In this document: piece by piece, positions 1,836 through 64,000 of the stretch
Numbering within the stretch: the first letter of the stretch is position 1
Layout: the number at the start of each line of letters is the position of its first letter
Assembly: GCA_965204755.1 (NCBI GenBank)
Contig: OZ242011.1
Span: 1,490,266-1,554,265, forward strand
DNA length: 64,000 bases
DNA from: Candidatus Marinacidobacterium sp.
GTDB taxonomy: Bacteria; Acidobacteriota; Vicinamibacteria; Marinacidobacterales; Marinacidobacteraceae
Direction of reading: 5' to 3'
Made by a program: the position numbers and the translations under genes
The notes under the pieces: model-generated
Database searches by the model: none
What the model saw: the letters and a program-made list of their open reading frames with translations, nothing else
What the model was told of the DNA's origin: nothing

Positions 1836-2291
1836 TCACCAAGACGATTCGACGAGGCGCTCGAGGCGGTCCGTCAGCAGTTCCCACCCGCGGCGAGCGG
1901 TCAAGTCGAGCGCGTCGAGCAGGTCGTCTCCCGAAGCGAGATCCACGGAGTGCCATTCCGCCGCGCCGGTGACCAGGTCCACTTCGACATTCACCTCGGT
2001 CGAACCGAGCGACCATTCCAACTGTGCGCCGCCGGCGAGAGTCGGATAGATGCGGGGCGGCGGCAACCGCTCCGGGTAGTCCTCGTCGAAGCGCGCCGCG
2101 AACCGGTCGAGTCCTGCCGGAGAGGGCGCCCGTCCCTGTCCGTCGAGCCAGCCGTCCCGGAGGGCGCGCAGCGCCTGCCACTGCGCGGCGACGGGAGTCG
2201 AATCGCGCGTTTCGAGGTCCGCTTCGCGGCGGCGCCCGCCCGGCCGGGACCTCCGGTTCCGCGACTCCGGAACTCCGCTTCGGTTCGCCAA
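1836..2291 (-). CDS. Hypothetical protein (start codon uncertain)
   Basis: The C-terminal ~150 codons of minus ORF 1836..3314 have protein-like composition (…AQLEWSLGSTEVNVEVDLVTGAAEWHSVDLASGDDLLDALDLTARRGWELLTDRLERLVESSW). No ATG is in frame; TTG candidates are at 2291 and 2066. Nothing else fills this 730-bp gap. Confidence 0.3.
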   Translation of the reverse strand: MANRSGVPESRNRRSRPGGRRREADLETRDSTPVAAQWQALRALRDGWLDGQGRAPSPAGLDRFAARFDEDYPERLPPPRIYPTLAGGAQLEWSLGSTEVNVEVDLVTGAAEWHSVDLASGDDLLDALDLTARRGWELLTDRLERLVESSW

Positions 2292-2435
2292 TCGATCCGC
2301 GATCGTAGCGGGAGGCGCCCCGAGCGGTGGGCGCGCAGGGTTTCGAACGACTCGACGGCCCTGCGTTCCCGAAAGCCCGCCCGGCAGTCCCGGCCGCGGC
2401 CCGCTCCCGGGTCGGCATCGGGTACCGTCCGGGCG

Positions 2436-3797
2436 ATGCTCTACCGATCGTTGAACCCCGCGACCGAGGAACTGCTGGCCGAGTTCGACACCTCGACGCC
2501 CGGCGAGATCGAGATCGCCCTGCAGAGCGCGGAGCGGGTCTTCTCGGACTGGCGGCGGACGCCGTTCGCCGAGCGGCGGCGGGTGAACGAGCGGCTCGCG
2601 GGCCTGCTCGAAGCGCAGGCGGACGACCTGGCGCGGCTCATGGCCGAGGAGATGGGGAAACCGCTGGCCCAGGGCGTGGCGGAGGCGCAGAAGTGCGCCT
2701 GGGTGGCGCGGCACTACGCGGAGACCGGGGAGAGGGCGCTTCGCCCCCGCCCGCTCGAGTCCGACGGGAGCGAGACCCGGCAGCAGTTCGAACCCCTCGG
2801 GCCGCTGTTCGCGGTCATGCCGTGGAACTTCCCGTTCTGGCAGGTCATCCGGGTGTCGGCGGCGAACTTCCTCACCGGCAACCCGATGCTGCTGAAACAC
2901 GCGCCGTCCGTCCCCCGCTGCGCGTTGCGCATCGTCCGGCTCTACGCGGAGGCCGGGGCGCCGGACGGCCTGATCGGGAACCTCTTCCTGACGAACGAAC
3001 AGGCGGCGGCCTGCATCGCCGATCCGCGGGTGCGGGCGGTGACCCTGACCGGGAGTTCCCGGGCGGGGAGCGAAGTCGCCGCGGAGGCCGGCCGCGCGCT
3101 GAAGCCGATGGTCGCCGAACTCGGCGGGAGCGATCCGTTCGTCGTTTTCGACGACGCCGACCTCGCCGAGGCGGCCGCCGCCGGCGCGGGAGCGCGGCTC
3201 ATCAACTCCGGCCAGAGTTGCATCGCCGCCAAGCGGTTCCTGGTCCAGCGGAGCGTCTTCGACGACTTCGCCGCGAAGTTCACCGAGCGCATCGCCGGCG
3301 CTCCCGTCGGGCATCCGGCGGACCCGGCCACCGAGGTCGGGCCGCTGGCCCGCGAAGACCTGCGCGACCGGCTGGAAGACCAGGTCGCCCGGTCCGTGGC
3401 CGCCGGAGCGGAAGTCCTCCAGCGCGGCGAAGCGCCCGAAGTCGGCTACTACTCCGCGACCGGCGTGCTCGGCGGCGCTCGCCCCGGCGCTCCCGCCTGG
3501 AGCGAGGAACTCTTCGGCCCGGTGGCCGTGCTCCTGCCGTTCGAGGACGAACGCCAGGCGGTCGAGATCGCGAACGCGACGCCCTACGGGCTCGGTTCCT
3601 CGCTGTGGACCTCCGACCCGGCGCGGGCGGAGCGGCTGATCCCCGAGATCGAGGCCGGCGCGGTGTTCGTGAACGGCATCACCAAGTCCGATCCGCGCGT
3701 TCCCTTCGGCGGCGCGAAGTCGTCCGGTTTCGGACGCGAGTTGGGAACCGACGGCCTCACCGAGTTCACGAACCGCAAGACCGTCTGGATCCGCTGA
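2436..3797 (+). CDS. NAD(P)+-dependent aldehyde dehydrogenase (succinate-semialdehyde dehydrogenase-like)
   Basis: ATG at 2436 (MLYRSLNPATEELLAEF). ALDH motifs are present: catalytic Cys region GQSCIAAKRF, ELGG, and the FVNGITKSDPRVPFGGAKSSGFGRE C-terminus. Confidence 0.9.
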   Translation: MLYRSLNPATEELLAEFDTSTPGEIEIALQSAERVFSDWRRTPFAERRRVNERLAGLLEAQADDLARLMAEEMGKPLAQGVAEAQKCAWVARHYAETGERALRPRPLESDGSETRQQFEPLGPLFAVMPWNFPFWQVIRVSAANFLTGNPMLLKHAPSVPRCALRIVRLYAEAGAPDGLIGNLFLTNEQAAACIADPRVRAVTLTGSSRAGSEVAAEAGRALKPMVAELGGSDPFVVFDDADLAEAAAAGAGARLINSGQSCIAAKRFLVQRSVFDDFAAKFTERIAGAPVGHPADPATEVGPLAREDLRDRLEDQVARSVAAGAEVLQRGEAPEVGYYSATGVLGGARPGAPAWSEELFGPVAVLLPFEDERQAVEIANATPYGLGSSLWTSDPARAERLIPEIEAGAVFVNGITKSDPRVPFGGAKSSGFGRELGTDGLTEFTNRKTVWIR

Positions 3798-21431: not shown

Positions 21432-21486
21432 CGCGGACTTCGGAGAGTCGGACCGGGAGAGTCGGGACGGCGGGACGGGACGGCGG

Positions 21487-24995: not shown

Positions 24996-25754
24996 TTGCC
25001 GGCAGCGTCGCCGACCGACCGCCGGACGCTGGTTCTGCTCCGCCACGGCGAAAGCGTCTGGAACCGGGAGAACCGGTTCACCGGCTGGACCGATGTCCCG
25101 CTCGCCGACACCGGCCGGGAGCAGGCCCGCCGCGCCGGCGACCTGCTGGTCGAGGCGGGGATCGTCCCGGCCACCGCCCACACCTCGCGCCTCCGCCGGG
25201 CGGAGGACACCCTGAGCGAGGTGATGGCCCGGGCCCGGTGGGAGGCGGTCCCCGTCCGCCGGGCCTGGGAACTCAACGAGCGCCACTACGGCGTCCTCCA
25301 GGGCGAGGACAAGGCGGAGACAGAGCGCCGCTACGGCCGGGAGCAGACGAGGCGCTGGCGCCGGAGTTACGCCGACGGCCCTCCCCCGGTGGACCGCGCC
25401 GACCCCCGCCACCCGGCGCAGGATCCGCGGTACCGAGAAGTCCCGCCGGAGGCCCTCCCGGCCGGCGAGTCCCTGCGGGACACCGCGGAGCGCGTCCTCC
25501 CCTACTGGGAGCGGGCGATCCTCCCCGACCTCGACCTCGGCCCGGTGCTGGTCGCCGCCCACGGCAACAGCCTCCGGGCGCTGGTGATGCGCCTCGAAGC
25601 CCTGTCCCCGGAGGAGATCGAACACCGCAACATCCCCACCGGGATCCCCTTGGTCCTGACGCTGGACGGGGCCTCTCGCGCGGTCGAGCGCCGCTACCTG
25701 GCCTCCGAGGCCGAACTCGACCGGGGCATCACCTTGGCGGCGCATCGCCCGTAG
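24996..25754 (+). CDS. gpmA: 2,3-bisphosphoglycerate-dependent phosphoglycerate mutase
   Basis: LVLLRHGESVWNRENRFTGWTDVPL is the canonical dPGM N-terminal motif. The start is assigned to TTG 24996 just after the pckA stop and is uncertain by a few codons. Confidence 0.9.
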   Translation: MPAASPTDRRTLVLLRHGESVWNRENRFTGWTDVPLADTGREQARRAGDLLVEAGIVPATAHTSRLRRAEDTLSEVMARARWEAVPVRRAWELNERHYGVLQGEDKAETERRYGREQTRRWRRSYADGPPPVDRADPRHPAQDPRYREVPPEALPAGESLRDTAERVLPYWERAILPDLDLGPVLVAAHGNSLRALVMRLEALSPEEIEHRNIPTGIPLVLTLDGASRAVERRYLASEAELDRGITLAAHRP

Positions 25755-25815
25755 AATTGCGTCCGTTCCGAGCGAGGGCGCCGCGCGGCCCCGTTTCCGG
25801 AACAGCCCCTCCGAC

Positions 25816-27725
25816 ATGAAGAAGAACCGCTCGAACCGGCAGTGGCGGTGGGAAACCGTCGACCCGAATGTGGGCGCTGCCGGCGGCGCCTTCGCGAAGG
25901 TGTTTCGCAACCTGGAGGAGAAGAAGCCCGGCTTTCTGGAGGAAGGCGCTCCGGGGTTGAACGCTTACCTGATGGCTCGAGAGGTCATCCAGAACGCATG
26001 GGACGCCGCCCTCGAGTTGCGGAAACCTGCCCCCCCCCCCCCCCCGCAAAAAGTCTTCCAGATTTCTACATCCAGTTCGACTTTCGTGTGCTGAGCGGTT
26101 CGGAAAAGAAGTCGCTCATCGCCACACTGGACTTGGGCGGGCATGTCGAGCGGCTTTCGCAACTCGAACGACAGACGATCGGTCTCGATGACGATCTCTG
26201 TCTGGATCATCTCGAGAGCAACGAACCGCTCCCGGTTCTCGTCATCGAGGAGACGGCAACGACCGGGATGTTCGGGCCGTGGAAGGGCGCCAAGTCGAAA
26301 CTCTTCAAGGCTCTCGCCGCCCTCGGCATCCAAGGCAAGGACGATGCGGATGCCGGGGGTGCCTTCGGTTTCGGCAAGGCGGGCCTGATTCGCGGTTCGG
26401 CCCCGCGGATCGTGGTGGCCTACACCTGCTTCCGGGAACAGATGGACGATCCAGGAGTTACCCGTCGCCTCTTGGGAATCACCTATTGGGACGCACATTC
26501 ACTGGACGACCGAGACTTCACCGGAATGGCGCGTTGGGACACGAACTCCGATGAGCCGCGACCGTTCGAGAACGACGAGGCGGACGGTATCGCCGAGGAA
26601 CTGGGGCTGAGGCTTCGCCACCCGGACAACGACGAGGACTTCGGCACTTCGTTCTTGATCCTGCAACCCACCGTCGATCCGGGGAGGCTGGAGACCGCGA
26701 TCAACCGCTCTTGGTGGCCGGCGCTGGAAGACACGACGCTCGGCTTCCAGGCAGCGATCCGGCCGCCCGGCGAAGACGCGCGTTCTCCGCGACCGCAACA
26801 GGACGCCGACCTGCAGCCCTTCGTCCGTGCTTATCGGCAGGCGACCTCCACCGCAAAGTTCATCGGCAAAGTTCCCAACCTCCACTCTTTTGATATCTGG
26901 GACTCGTCCCGACTACTGGGAAAACTCGTACTGGTCACCGACCCGGACGGTTGGTCGTTCCAGGACCCGAGTTCGTCATCGGATGAGAGTCTCGTCGCGC
27001 TGATGCGCAACACGCGGATGGTCGTGGAATATCGAAAGTTGGGGTTCCGGGAGACCACTCCGATCGTTCGCGGCGTCTTCGTGGCGGACGACGGCGTGAG
27101 CGGTCTTCTCCGGGAAACGGAACCCGTCGGGCACGATGCTTGGTATTCGGGTGGTGACGAGAACGATGCCAGCGAAGAGGCTCGTGCTGTCGCAGACTGC
27201 ATCCTGAAGAAAATCAAGGATCGCGTTCGCAAGGTTCGCAAGGACTTGGCGCCGCCCGCACCGAAACCGGAGTTCGTGAGGCTCCCGGAGTTCGACCGCA
27301 TCATGCGGCGCATCTTGGGCGGCGAGGGCCGAAAACAGGGGCCGACCGCGCAGAGGCGTTTCGTACGGTTGGATGGAATCGAGAGCGAGCCCGAGATCGT
27401 TGGCCACGGGCTCATCCGTACCACCGGGTCCGCGCAGTTCGGTCTGAGCGAAAATTTTCCGGTGTCCCGCCCCGGCGCACGCGTTGCCATCCAAGTCCGT
27501 TTCGTGGTACTCGAGGACGGTCAGGCCCGCGGCGCCAATAGCGTCCCGGTCGCAGTCGCGCCTCCCGATGGCTTCGAAGTCGCCGACGACGCCGATCCCC
27601 ACCGCTTCACGGGCTGGTTGGCTCGCGGCGACGAACACGGCTTCTCCTTCCAAACGGATCCTTACGACGAGGATTGGACCGGTCGGCTCTACATCGAGGC
27701 CGAATTCCTTTCCGAGGACTCTTGA
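25816..27725 (+). CDS. GHKL (Bergerat-fold, MORC/MutL-like) ATPase-domain protein, first gene of an R-M-like island; interrupted by a frameshift at the poly-C tract
   Basis: Segment 1 (25816..26094, frame 1) carries the N-box YLMAREVIQNAWDA. Segment 2 (25842..27725, frame 3) carries a G1-like box (VIEETATTGMFGP) and a G2 box (GGAFGFGKAGL, cf. MORC G-x-FG-x-G-x-K). The frames join only if the 16-C tract gains 1 nt or loses 2. GC is lower (~58-60%) than the flanks. Confidence 0.75.
26030..26045 (+). repeat. Homopolymeric C16 tract inside the GHKL ATPase gene
   Basis: Counted directly: c at 26030 through c at 26045. It is translated as PAPPPPPQ in the upstream frame and is out of frame with the downstream ATPase core. 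Confidence 0.9.
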
Positions 27726-28711
27726 ATCGAGAACGCAAGACCGTACGCCCGTTTCGGGGCGTAGCGCCGTCGCTGACCAGAGCCCTGCGGAATGCGGTTC
27801 TTCGGTTCGGAGAGAAACAGGTCACCGCGGGCGCTCGCCTCCAGTGGGACGACTTCGAGACCTACCGAGACCAAGACATTTTGCTGGAGTGGAGCGCGGA
27901 CGACGAGTCTCCGACCTTCTTGTCCGGGCTGAAACAAGGCTGCCGCGAGTCCGGTCTGCCTCCCGACAGTCTGGCTCTCGTCGTCACGGCCACCAGCCGG
28001 TATCTCGGTATCGTGGATGTCCTCTTCAACTGTCCTCTGGACGACTTGGATGAACTCGAACCTGCCCTTGACCTTCGGGCCGAGAAAACCGACGCGGCGG
28101 CTTGGAGGACATGTGTCCGAGGTTGCCGGGTGGACGCGTATCTCCTGCTCGCCCGCAAACTGGAAGAACGGCCTCTTCGCCCCTGGAGGAAGGGAGTGTG
28201 GCTGTCGAGGGCGAGTTTCACGGTAGCGACAGACTACACGGAGAGTCTGTTTCGACCGAGGAAACTGGACGACAAACAGCGGAAGCGATTTCAACTCTCG
28301 GTTCAGGCGCTCCGCTATGTCCATCTTCCGGAACCCGTCTGGGAGGAATATGACCCCGAAGAGCCGCCGGAGGTGTACTTGGACGCCGAGATCATGGCGC
28401 AGATCGCGGCGAAGCCGAAAGCGCTGCCGAGCCGCCTGGCCCAAGCGGAACTCGCCTATGTGTTCCTGCGTGGCGTCCTCACCGATGCTCACATGAACCG
28501 AAAGCAGTGGCGCGGGCGCATGTGGCGGGACATCGCGAACACACTGCTCGGCAAGGCCCTTCGCGCCATCGCCGGGAAGAACGCGCCCGTCGCCGAGTGC
28601 GCTCGATGGATGGACAGACTCGGCAGTGACGGTGGCTTGGAGGGTGTCGTGTCGGAGTGCGAGGGCGTCACCGAAATTCGCGCTCTTCTTCGCGACGCGT
28701 TTCGGGAGTAG
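27722..28711 (+). CDS. Hypothetical protein (island gene 2), no recognisable family
   Basis: ORF 27674..28711. A TTG at 27722 overlaps the upstream TGA (TTGA), suggesting translational coupling. Coherent non-repetitive composition; 329 aa. Confidence 0.6.
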   Translation: MNRERKTVRPFRGVAPSLTRALRNAVLRFGEKQVTAGARLQWDDFETYRDQDILLEWSADDESPTFLSGLKQGCRESGLPPDSLALVVTATSRYLGIVDVLFNCPLDDLDELEPALDLRAEKTDAAAWRTCVRGCRVDAYLLLARKLEERPLRPWRKGVWLSRASFTVATDYTESLFRPRKLDDKQRKRFQLSVQALRYVHLPEPVWEEYDPEEPPEVYLDAEIMAQIAAKPKALPSRLAQAELAYVFLRGVLTDAHMNRKQWRGRMWRDIANTLLGKALRAIAGKNAPVAECARWMDRLGSDGGLEGVVSECEGVTEIRALLRDAFRE

Positions 28712-28716
28712 CCACG

Positions 28717-29439
28717 ATGCGATACAAGACACTCCCGCTCCAGGAGTGTCGGCGTTTCGCCCGCGAGCGACTCGCGGGAGAGACGCCGGACATCGGTACG
28801 GGCGTTGTCTTCGCCGGAGCCGGCGAAGACCTCGACATAAAGCCGATCCGCAAGGCCGCCAAGAAGATCGTCCGTCTCGTCGACGACAAGGCGAAGGATC
28901 GGGATCGAATCGAGGGGAAGGCCGCTGTTCTCCTCTACGACGGCCTTGCCGGAGTCCCGGTCGACGCACTCGACGATCCGGGTTTCTGGCGCTACCTGAG
29001 TGTCGGATTGGCGTTTTGGGGCTTCATCGCCTGGAGGGAGCACCGCGCACTGCAGAAGGGCGACAACTTCCTCAAGTATGTCGACGGGAAGAAGGCGACC
29101 GAGTGTGTCCTTCCGCGCATGTACATGCGCGTGTTGGCGCTCGGCGCCCGGGACGACCCGAAGGGACAGTTCCGGGAACTGGCTACGGCGCTTCCGGCCG
29201 CGACGGACTTCTGGCGGAGTCATGTGGTCCGGGTGCAGACCGCGGCGTCGCCGGCCGTCGTTCGGGCGTTCGCGCGAATGCAAAAAGAGAGGCGTCTCAA
29301 CACCGACGATCTCCGGGAGTTCGCGAAGGACATTTCCAAGATCCGTTCGACGGTCGTTTTGAGCATCTACAACGACGAGGAAGCCGACATCTTCATCCGA
29401 GACCTTCGCGCGAAGTTCGACCGCCGGAAGGCCGGATAG
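28717..29439 (+). CDS. Hypothetical protein (island gene 3), no recognisable family; weak PD-(D/E)xK-like motif
   Basis: ATG at 28717 (MRYKTLPLQECRRF…), 6 nt after the gene-2 stop. The N-terminal TPD…(14 aa)…EDLDIK has the spacing of a PD-(D/E)xK nuclease motif, but this is speculative. 240 aa. Confidence 0.6.
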   Translation: MRYKTLPLQECRRFARERLAGETPDIGTGVVFAGAGEDLDIKPIRKAAKKIVRLVDDKAKDRDRIEGKAAVLLYDGLAGVPVDALDDPGFWRYLSVGLAFWGFIAWREHRALQKGDNFLKYVDGKKATECVLPRMYMRVLALGARDDPKGQFRELATALPAATDFWRSHVVRVQTAASPAVVRAFARMQKERRLNTDDLREFAKDISKIRSTVVLSIYNDEEADIFIRDLRAKFDRRKAG

Positions 29440-30806
29440 TGAGTCTTGCCGGCGCCGCCCGGCAGTCCCGTGTGGTTGCCGCGAAGGGAACGCTTCGGGA
29501 GGATTATCGGCACAACGGGAGTGTCCGGCACTCGCTCGCGCTCGGCGCGCGACGGGGCCTGAGCGCCGATCTGGGAGAGCCGGAGAGCGCCCCTCGCTGC
29601 AGCGGCGATCCCAAGGGCGAGTGGTGGCGCGCCTATCTCCGCGGCCGCCGACCGGTCACAGCGAACCCGAGCGGGAAGACCCTGCGCATCGCCGACCTGT
29701 TCTGCGGGGCCGGGGGACTCGCGCTCGGGGTTCGCCAGTTGTGCGACGAAGCCGGTCTCGAGCCGGTCTGGGAGTTCATCGCCGACCGAGACGACGGCGC
29801 GGTGGCGGTGTACGCGGGGAACCACCCGGTGCGGCGGGTCTCGAGGGAATCGGTGTCCGACCTGCTGGACTACCGGGTGCGGCGGCGGTCGAGCGGGGCC
29901 GAGTTCGTCTATGAATCGGAGTTCCTCGACCCCGAGTTGCGCAAGGCGGTGCGCGGCGTGGACCTGGTGATGGCCGGGCCGCCGTGCGAGGGGCATTCGA
30001 ACCTGAACAACCACACGCGCCGGGACGACCGGCGGAACCACCTCTATCTCGCGGTTCCGGCGTTCGCGGTCGCTGCGGGGGCGCGGATGGTGCTCATCGA
30101 GAATGTGCCCGCGGTGGAGAACGACCGCAGCGGAGTGGTCGAGGCGGCGCGTAACCTGTTGGAGGCTGCCGGTTATTCCGTCGAAACCGGCGTCCTCGCC
30201 GCCGACGCCATGGGATGGCCGCAGACGCGGCGGCGGTTCTTCCTGGTGGCTCACCGTTCCCGCGCGCCAGTGCCGTTCGCGGCGATCCGTGAGGGTCTCG
30301 CCGACGATGCTCCGCGCCCGCTCTGGTGGGCCATCGAGGACCTGGAGGAGACCGGCGGCGACGATCCGCTGCATCGCGTGGGGGAACTCAGCGAGGAGAA
30401 CCGCGCTCGTATCGCGTGGCTGTTCGACAACGACGCTCACGAACTCGACCTCTCCGAACGGCCGGCCTGCCACCGGGACGGCACGACCTACTCGGCGGTG
30501 TACGGGCGTATGCACCGGGACCAGCCCGCGCCGACGATCACGACCGGTTTCCTGACACCGGGCCGCGGCCGGTTCGTGCATCCGACCCGGCGACGGACGC
30601 TGACCCCGCGCGAAGCGGCCCGGCTGCAGGGTTTTCCCGACACCTACCGGTTCGCTCCGGAGGCCGACCGAGTCCCCACCCGGTCGCAACTCGCGAAGTG
30701 GATCGGGGACGCGGTGCCCATGCCGCTCGGCTACGCCGCGGCGCTCTCCCTGCTCGCCCCCGAGTTGGGCCGGGCGAGCCCGCGACGGAAACCGCAGCAC
30801 GCGTGA
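29439..30806 (+). CDS. dcm: DNA (cytosine-5)-methyltransferase, Dcm-like
   Basis: Motif I LRIADLFCGAGGLALG, PC motif GPPCEGHS, ENV motif LIENVPAV, motif VIII QTRRRFFLVA, motif X TPREAARLQGFPDTYRF. The GTG start overlaps the upstream TAG; ~70-aa N-terminal extension. Confidence 0.9.
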   Translation: MSLAGAARQSRVVAAKGTLREDYRHNGSVRHSLALGARRGLSADLGEPESAPRCSGDPKGEWWRAYLRGRRPVTANPSGKTLRIADLFCGAGGLALGVRQLCDEAGLEPVWEFIADRDDGAVAVYAGNHPVRRVSRESVSDLLDYRVRRRSSGAEFVYESEFLDPELRKAVRGVDLVMAGPPCEGHSNLNNHTRRDDRRNHLYLAVPAFAVAAGARMVLIENVPAVENDRSGVVEAARNLLEAAGYSVETGVLAADAMGWPQTRRRFFLVAHRSRAPVPFAAIREGLADDAPRPLWWAIEDLEETGGDDPLHRVGELSEENRARIAWLFDNDAHELDLSERPACHRDGTTYSAVYGRMHRDQPAPTITTGFLTPGRGRFVHPTRRRTLTPREAARLQGFPDTYRFAPEADRVPTRSQLAKWIGDAVPMPLGYAAALSLLAPELGRASPRRKPQHA

Positions 30807-31245
30807 CCGGCGCCGGCGCCGGGCCGGCGCGGGAGGAGTCGGTCCCGGAGTCCGTTCGGCGGCGGATGCGGAATACGCCGCGGCGGGATACGCCGTTCGA
30901 GGTCGCGGTGCGGAAGCAGGCGTACGCGTTGGGCCTGCGCTATCGCGTGGACTGCGGCGTTCCCGGAGTGACCCGGGGACGGCCCGACCTGGTATTCAGC
31001 GGACGCCGGGTGGCCGTGTTCCTCGACGGCTGCTCTGGCACTCCTGCCCGATCCACCGCTCGGCCCCGGCCACGAACCGCGAGTGGTGGGCCGCCAAACT
31101 GCGGGCGAACGCCGACCGCGACGAACGCCACCGCCGGGAACTCGAGGACGCCGGATGGACCGTCCTCCGCTTCTGGGAACACGAAGATCCCGCAACCGTC
31201 GCCGCCGAAATCGCCGCCGCGGTTCGCGGGTCCCAACCGGGCTGA
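30803..31245 (+). pseudogene. vsr: Very-short-patch-repair endonuclease (Vsr), frameshifted
   Basis: GTG at 30803 overlaps the dcm stop (GTGA), as in E. coli dcm-vsr. The N-part reads …ALGLRYRVDCGVPGVTRGRPDLVFSGRRVAVFLDGC. After ~31034 the conserved FWHSCPIHRSAPATNREWWAAKLRANADRDERHRRELEDAGWTVLRFWEHED continues in frame 1, which is consistent with one missing T (tgcTtctgg→tgctctgg). Confidence 0.75.

Positions 31246-62375: not shown

Positions 62376-64000
<1,625 letters not shown>

Follow-up and report, generated by a model that had tools for sequence, protein, structure and literature searches.

Does a run of 16 cytosines that splits a predicted ATPase gene act as a genetic switch, or is it an error of assembly? 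The question was raised by a first-pass annotation of a 64,000-nucleotide stretch of Candidatus Marinacidobacterium sp. contig OZ242011.1 (assembly GCA_965204755.1, positions 1,490,266 to 1,554,265 of the forward strand), referred to below as the window. The gene concerned, gene A, encodes a putative Hsp90-like ATPase and heads the coupled cassette A-B-C-Dcm-Vsr. Comparison with related loci indicates that the run, here called C16, is likely a hypermutable simple-sequence tract and a genuine switch. This phase-variation reading is well supported by the comparative evidence, and the allele carried by the window is probably OFF.

A homopolymer sets the reading frame of gene A

The tract consists of 16 consecutive C at positions 26030-26045 of the forward strand, flanked on the 5' side by ...GGAAACCTG and on the 3' side by GCAAAAAG.... 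Translation confirmed that it splits the gene as first described, leaving the N-box in frame 1 and the G1 and G2 boxes in frame 3. The frame-1 open reading frame (ORF) starts at ATG 25816, runs through the N-box and the tract, which it reads as PAPPPPPQ, and ends at TGA 26092-26094; its 92-aa product reads MKKNRSNRQW...MAREVIQNAWDAALELRKPAPPPPPQ. Frame 3, which holds the G1-like and G2 boxes, stays open from ahead of the tract as far as 27725. Addition of one C (C17) gives a protein of 636 aa and removal of two (C14) a protein of 635 aa, in agreement with the ~636-aa fusion originally predicted for a gain of 1 nt or a loss of 2 nt. Gene A is full length only if the tract length leaves a remainder of 2 when divided by 3 (14, 17, 20 ... 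35), and at other lengths translation stops at aa 92 or at aa 124-125. In the C16 allele the stop lies 16 codons past the tract, and the N-box is all that the product retains.

The C16 run is real and far beyond chance. No homopolymer in the window exceeds 7 nt apart from C16 and a run of 34 G (G34, 63696-63729), and C or G runs of at least 12 nt are expected 0.09 times per dinucleotide-preserving shuffle. Because CCG is the preferred proline codon in the window (62%) and CCC makes up only 27%, the purity of the tract is not due to codon preference.

Two other candidate interpretations of the site were rejected. A two-colour poly-G artefact or chimeric join was discarded, as both flanks belong to one gene and the protein alignment with homologues is continuous across the site. 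The opposite-strand ORFs over the tract (25729-26049 and 25965-26498) were set aside, the third-codon-position GC (GC3) signature being absent from them.

The premature TGA overlaps the GTG at 26088-26090 of the downstream frame (GTGCTGA, 26088-26094). It is at this GTG that gene callers begin a 545-aa remnant of gene A (P0001, N-terminus MLSGSEKK).

Tract length varies between closely related assemblies

Alleles were compared between assemblies, as consensus sequences. The conspecific set comprised seven loci including the window, 96.6-99.4% identical over ~6.6 kb and with identical flanks. Their tracts range from 14 to 35 nt (Table 1), and the dependence of ON and OFF on length modulo 3 was true of every allele examined, in conspecifics and in sister species alike. 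The tract was the sole gap between the window and either of two conspecifics (L084 and L085), and likewise the sole indel in several pairs. With such a spread of lengths between identical flanks, and with the frame matching the length, these comparisons strongly favour a genuine hypervariable sequence. An exact-flank scan of Joint Genome Institute (JGI) metagenome contigs returned no further tract alleles. The conspecific OFF alleles (16, 25, 25 and 28 nt) all fall in one frame (4/4), which is too few to indicate a preference.

Predicted proteins carried the same signal. The 90%-identity cluster that includes the window protein has 13 members, among them full-length calls of 635 and 642 aa and split calls of 92, 95 or 96 aa accompanied by 545 aa. 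Clusters P0009 and P0022 mix in-frame proteins with calls whose out-of-frame N-termini enter poly-proline. A sister species with 77% protein identity and the same chromosomal site carried C20 (ON), C25 (OFF) and an interrupted tract of 32 nt (ON); its C20 and C25 alleles align at 99.4% identity without any gap outside the tract.

Homopolymers recur in three loops of gene A

The suggestion that the run is a conserved switch withstood comparison with orthologues, since the homopolymer is kept in close orthologues at 77%, 66% and 52% identity. The wider family was surveyed at 80 loci from GTDB species representatives, a set outside which the window's own genome falls, covering 990 kb. Homopolymers of at least 9 nt numbered 25, and 20 of them lay inside gene A, which makes up ~15% of the sequence (binomial P 1.3e-12). 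Gene A tracts were found at three positions (Table 1), all of which map to coil loops of the structural model, and they are C or G on the coding strand depending on the locus. Among the species representatives, 8 tracts were in frame and 12 were out of frame precisely at the run.

A neighbour-joining tree places the tract carriers in no fewer than eight clades, with tract-less sisters interspersed, and the survey strongly favours independent gains of tracts in distant lineages. Several related loci bear sponge-associated names (Candidatus Poriferisodalis, Poriferisocius, Spongiisociaceae). The members from cultured organisms (Mycobacterium, Aeromicrobium, Massilia and Trinickia) had no tract.

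A few long runs were also seen outside gene A. A C15 run (L012:2007-2021) lies near the 5' end of a large ORF (stop-to-stop 1952-3418, 489 codons), and a C18 run (L056:5932-5949) immediately upstream of a degraded gene A. Shorter G/C runs occur downstream of the Dcm/Vsr genes at L013:11233-11242 and L017:11842-11852.

Gene A resembles Hsp90-type GHKL ATPases

Over 380 proteins of ~635 aa in the database align with the repaired protein across 98-100% of its length. The repaired protein had no Pfam or NCBIfam hit, and hence no match to a curated profile of the HATPase_c type. The PADLOC profile PDC-M33A gave a weak partial match to gene A itself and E-values of 4e-8 to 9e-13 with members of the family. 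A sequence-profile search of the PDB returned TRAP1 only, aligned at the N-box region and not significant (E 0.8).

Conserved motifs and fold support the original assignment of gene A as a GHKL ATPase and suggest, more precisely, an Hsp90-like one. In an alignment of 25 family sequences, the N-box REVIQNAWDAA fits the pattern E-x3-N-x2-D-A, with E56, Q59, N60, D63 and A65 invariant. The G1 box is a variant, IEETATTGMFG, that is without the canonical Asp of D-x-G-x-G; its residues E145, G150, M151 and G153 are invariant. The G2 box GGAFGFGKAG fits G-x-x-G-x-G, with G180, G181, G184, G186 and K187 invariant. The AlphaFold model (mean predicted local distance difference test score, pLDDT, 78.5; predicted template modelling score, pTM, 0.69) found HtpG, Hsp90 and TRAP1 as its nine best Foldseek hits in the PDB (E 7e-7 to 8e-5, probability 1.00); these alignments span ~500 columns with low TM-scores of 0.21-0.36. 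In the model, the Hsp90-like part is succeeded by a beta-sandwich at the C-terminus. The tract encodes a loop (aa 70-82) that joins the N-box helix to the first beta-strand in the model, and this poly-proline loop tolerates 4 to 11 prolines.

A proposed switch and its competitors

We propose the following scheme for a switch in gene A. Slipped-strand mispairing at replication would alter the tract length at high frequency, so that a population would mix cells in which a costly methylation-linked activity, of a defence or restriction-like kind, is ON with cells in which it is OFF. Together with B and C, the ATPase may act against DNA without the Dcm mark, and it would be the costly or self-toxic part of a Dcm-linked defence activity. 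The OFF state may also reduce downstream gene expression through lost translational coupling. The TGA/GTG overlap (GTGCTGA) could permit re-initiation, keeping the coupling to B, C and Dcm, and transcriptional slippage on long runs could leave the OFF state leaky, either as a modifier of the switch or as a rival to it.

Several points weigh against this scheme. The data are of polymorphism between assemblies, as distinct from heterogeneity or reversibility within a population. In ERZ25070167, a single HiFi sample, three contigs from two strains and a sister species (Table 1) all carry exactly C25; their near-identical flanks may have led to cross-talk in polishing or read mapping. The frameshifts of the window (C16, G34 and Vsr) are each one base short of an intact frame, and because all three are -1, the OFF state of the window allele is probable, not certain. 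Gene A has also been disabled by other routes in many genomes, namely insertions and frameshifts off runs. Finally, profile searches of genes A-C, together with a fold search for B, recognised no nuclease, helicase or other effector. The "restriction arm" to which the first-pass annotation had assigned the gene was accordingly not established and stays an inference.

Among the competing explanations, the one that survives best, and which we still consider unlikely, is that C16 is miscounted here and that the dominant allele is in frame (C17 or C14), a view compatible with variability elsewhere. Contig names such as ctg394261_187.90x_l suggest that the assemblies are long-read metagenomes, in which homopolymer length is a weak point, homopolymers being the main error mode of long-read consensus. 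The shared direction of the three frameshifts in the window (C16, G34 in the mod gene and a TT-to-T change in Vsr) and the C25 common to the three ERZ25070167 contigs are in keeping with a miscount. Yet independent assemblies range from 14 to 35 nt, well past an error of 1-2 bases, and OFF and ON alleles occur both in short-read scaffold assemblies and in metaMDBG-style contigs. Besides the tract, the window has one uncompensated coding indel relative to a 98.7% identical relative over 13.9 kb, so its assembly is not riddled with indels. Consequently, assembly error survives only for the exact count in the window assembly: between the two options first put forward, the comparative lengths favour the switch, while the count of 16 itself is not established.

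Rather less probable is that the tract serves as an attenuator. Polymerase slippage or ribosomal frameshifting would then mix frames at any DNA length, the tract tuning the dose of ATPase, and 4 to 11 prolines in a row would additionally slow translation. Transcriptional slippage on long homopolymers, and the rescue of indels by it, are generally documented. Tracts of 25-35 nt far exceed what a simple switch needs, and the frame shared by the four conspecific OFF alleles is the one whose stop overlaps the correct-frame GTG. What speaks against attenuation is the strict modulo-3 rule, which separates ON from OFF at the DNA level in every allele examined.

We consider it improbable, more so than attenuation, that the cassette is simply being lost from symbiont genomes by neutral decay, with poly-C as a hotspot of mutation within a linker that tolerates change, and the OFF alleles as early pseudogenes. 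Plain decay does occur in the gene A family, given that the gene is split by insertions of ~1.2-3.5 kb in L027, L038, L051, L062, L071 and L072 and carries frameshifts away from any run in L033, L050, L052, L054, L070, L077 and L081. The window vsr, in the same operon, is frameshifted as well, and the ON fraction (3/7 in conspecifics, 8/20 in species representatives) is near the ~1/3 that random lengths would give. However, the OFF alleles keep a clean downstream frame of 559 codons free of extra stops and indels, and the ratio of nonsynonymous to synonymous substitution rates (dN/dS) is 0.15-0.40 among alleles, OFF-OFF pairs included, on small counts of 2 to 34 substitutions per pair. Also speaking against decay are the purity of the homopolymer, kept in orthologues at 52-77% identity although CCG is the preferred codon, the repeated tract origins at three loops, and the concentration of 20 of the 25 runs in gene A. 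The insertions in the six species representatives are candidate mobile elements and would form a second, irreversible route of inactivation.

A frame-independent structural element, in which a template-strand G-quadruplex (G16 or longer) or a C-strand i-motif modulates transcription or replication, is highly improbable: the tracts are long and runs of at least 15 G are in principle able to form intramolecular quadruplexes, but tracts that are C or G on the coding strand, sit at three positions, always lie in protein loops and set the frame exactly by their length argue for a role in the coding frame.

Cassette organization and surroundings

The genes of the cassette (A, B, C, Dcm and Vsr; Table 1) overlap or abut the preceding gene, the GTG start of gene D overlapping the stop of gene C. 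The model of gene B combines a beta-sandwich with a helical bundle, and its fold search gave only generic beta-sandwich matches. The gene C orthologue in a conspecific is annotated as PF19866. Genes B and C had no PADLOC profile match, and a promoter and terminator scan of 25.5-31.6 kb found nothing above shuffles. The order A, B, a gap of ~0.9 kb and Dcm is shared by most of the 80 species-representative loci, in several phyla, often with Vsr nearby.

Table 1. Features of the window, tract alleles and tract sites in related loci.
Feature or locus	Position	Strand	Description
Gene A, 5' part (frame 1)	25816..26029	+	Start ATG to last base before the tract; from translation
GHKL N-box MAREVIQNAWDAA	25972-26010	+	Frame 1; N-box helix H48-69 of the model
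C16 homopolymer	26030..26045	+	Poly-proline loop, aa 70-82, pLDDT ~57
Premature TGA	26092..26094	+	C16 (OFF) frame; from translation
Gene A, 3' part (frame 3)	26046..27725	+	G1-like and G2 boxes, predicted Hsp90-like middle domain and C-terminal beta-sandwich
G1-like box IEETATTGMFGPW	26244-26282	+	Frame 3
G2 box GGAFGFGKAGL	26355-26387	+	Frame 3
Gene B	TTG 27722..28711	+	329 aa, no known family; start overlaps gene A stop (TTGA)
Gene C	28717..29439	+	240 aa, DUF6339-like; Pfam PF19866 E 6e-4, under gathering score
Gene D	GTG 29439..30806	+	Dcm-type C-5 cytosine DNA methyltransferase; PF00145 E 3e-37; TIGR00675; PADLOC DruM/MTase_II
vsr	30803..31245	+	Very-short-patch repair endonuclease, frameshifted; intact L001 copy PF03852 E 5.5e-17
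Conspecific L001			C14, ON
Window			C16, OFF
Conspecific L084			C25, OFF
Conspecific L085			C25, OFF
Conspecific L086			C5AC22 (28 nt), OFF
Conspecific L002			C35, ON
Conspecific L003			C14GC20 (35 nt), ON
Site 1	Linker after N-box, as in the window		L004 C32, L005 C12, L013 C24, L014 C17, L024 C17, L025 C9, L061 C21, L047 G15, L049 G10
Site 2	~150 nt beyond site 1		L008 G11, L029 G15, L048 G16, L055 G8
Site 3	Near codon 320		L026, L039, L057, L060, L063, L068, L073, L083; G8 to G19
ERZ25070167 C25 contigs	L084:2434-2458, L085:2434-2458, L088:773-797		Two strains at 56x and 188x; sister species at 69x

The GC-content of the cassette (~25.8-31.3 kb) is 63-65%, compared with 72-75% in its surroundings and the genome. 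Its neighbours are housekeeping genes, with PEPCK and a histidine phosphatase upstream and SPFH and glnA downstream. In conspecifics the cassette occupies the same site, with the histidine phosphatase on one side and SPFH/glnA on the other; of these two sides, the phosphatase one was observed in the sister species. The lower GC-content and the shared chromosomal site are consistent with an old, horizontally acquired island.

The vsr frameshift is a 1-nt deletion at 31034 (CTGCTTCTGG -> CTGC-TCTGG), as judged against L001, a 98.7% identical conspecific locus whose copy is intact. It changes TT to T, away from long homopolymers, and leaves the FLDGCFWH motif divided between two frames; either a real pseudogene or an error of assembly could account for it. 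Elsewhere, at 21442-21470, the window and L001 have different numbers of an intergenic 14-nt unit (GGAGAGTCGGACGG-like), leaving a 28-nt gap. This small tandem-repeat polymorphism lies upstream of a CarD-like gene, and another 1-nt indel lies close by.

The second long run of the window, G34, lies inside a gene for a Type III Mod DNA methyltransferase (PF01555; PADLOC MTase_III E 3e-117) that starts at GTG 62376 and extends past the window end. The mod frame upstream of G34 is one base out of step with the proper frame that follows it (TFSYFRLGKPMRKE... from 63731), and a tract of G35 or G32 would make the gene whole. A conspecific mod gene encodes 8 glycines instead of 11 at the G34 site and is also out of frame. 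Lying likewise in an R-M gene and varying in length from one assembly to another, G34 counts in favour of the switch reading of C16 and is a candidate second contingency locus within 64 kb.

Implications

The mechanism itself is already known from classical contingency loci; what sets the present case apart is that the target is uncharacterised, that tracts arose repeatedly and independently in three loops, and that both their length and the kind of organism are unusual. Phase variation of restriction-modification (R-M) systems by repeats is textbook knowledge, drawn mostly from a few cultured host-adapted pathogens. A broader generalization, to which we give about an even chance, is that an uncharacterised defence-type cassette of ATPase, B, DUF6339 protein, Dcm and Vsr, spread across Acidobacteriota, Actinomycetota and other uncultured lineages, carries convergent homopolymer switches at three surface loops of the ATPase in at least eight lineages, with tracts of up to 35 nt. 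If this is true, the control of immunity by contingency loci would be a general strategy of high-GC animal symbionts, not the speciality of a few pathogens, and the ATPase would be marked as the costly component that cells must silence.

Such tracts hint strongly that, within a methylation-linked defence system, the Hsp90-like ATPase is the part that acts and carries the cost, and the natural series of ON and OFF alleles can be used to test ATPase function. They also call for caution in annotation: in these genomes, defence genes that pipelines discard as "frameshifted pseudogenes" at long G/C runs may in fact be working switches.

Comparison with known systems

In the literature that was searchable, no relevant paper turned up on DUF6339, PDC-M33 or phase variation in sponge symbionts. 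VcSduA, which belongs to the Shedu type of defence proteins, has a GHKL ATPase domain at its N-terminus for which control of an effector has been proposed (PMC12137116). It likewise places a GHKL ATPase in phage defence, this being the role of VcSduA; it differs in being a single protein fused to a DUF4263 PD-(D/E)xK nuclease, with no methylase partner or repeat tract. The PADLOC candidate system PDC-M33 has a similar profile length (627) and partial significant matches to the gene A family, but only short stretches of gene A match, and genes B and C have no counterpart among PADLOC profiles.

With Hsp90, HtpG and TRAP1, gene A shares the layout of N-box helix, variable loop and first beta-strand, where the weak TRAP1 profile alignment also falls, and its N-terminal and middle domains align with theirs over ~500 columns. 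It differs from them in sequence identity of only 10-13% and TM-scores of only 0.2-0.36, in a C-terminus predicted as a beta-sandwich in place of a dimerisation domain, and in its context, a defence-island operon.

In prokaryotic R-M systems, GHKL ATPases of the MORC/paraMORC group have been linked to methylases and Vsr as well as to helicases and nucleases (Iyer, Abhiman and Aravind 2008, PMC2292703). Gene A resembles these ATPases in its GHKL motifs, in the adjoining DNA methylase (PF00145) and Vsr (PF03852), and in its sporadic occurrence across phyla. In contrast to them, it has no Pfam HATPase_c or HATPase_c_3 hit, and its predicted fold is closest to Hsp90/HtpG, not to MutL/MORC. Its operon contains no recognised superfamily II helicase or RE-fold nuclease; its partners are instead the beta-sandwich/helical protein B and the DUF6339 protein. 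Measured against a classical R-M system, the methyltransferase is present and an endonuclease was not recognised in genes A-C.

The closest parallel in mode of control is offered by phase-variable R-M genes, including the Type III mod genes of phasevarions, 17.4% of which carry repeats (Atack et al., PMC5909438). The tracts studied here differ from them in that their target is an uncharacterised Hsp90-like ATPase and not a methylase, specificity subunit or recognised endonuclease. Judged from the titles of their records, the relatives are uncultured high-GC bacteria, several of them sponge-named, unlike the host-adapted pathogens of the classic cases. Their tracts can be as long as 25-35 nt, and the switching is one predicted from assembled alleles. 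In other respects the two agree: an intragenic repeat sets the frame, close strains are polymorphic in its length, the locus is a methylase-linked defence locus, and a genome may hold more than one tract, as C16 and the G34 of mod do here.

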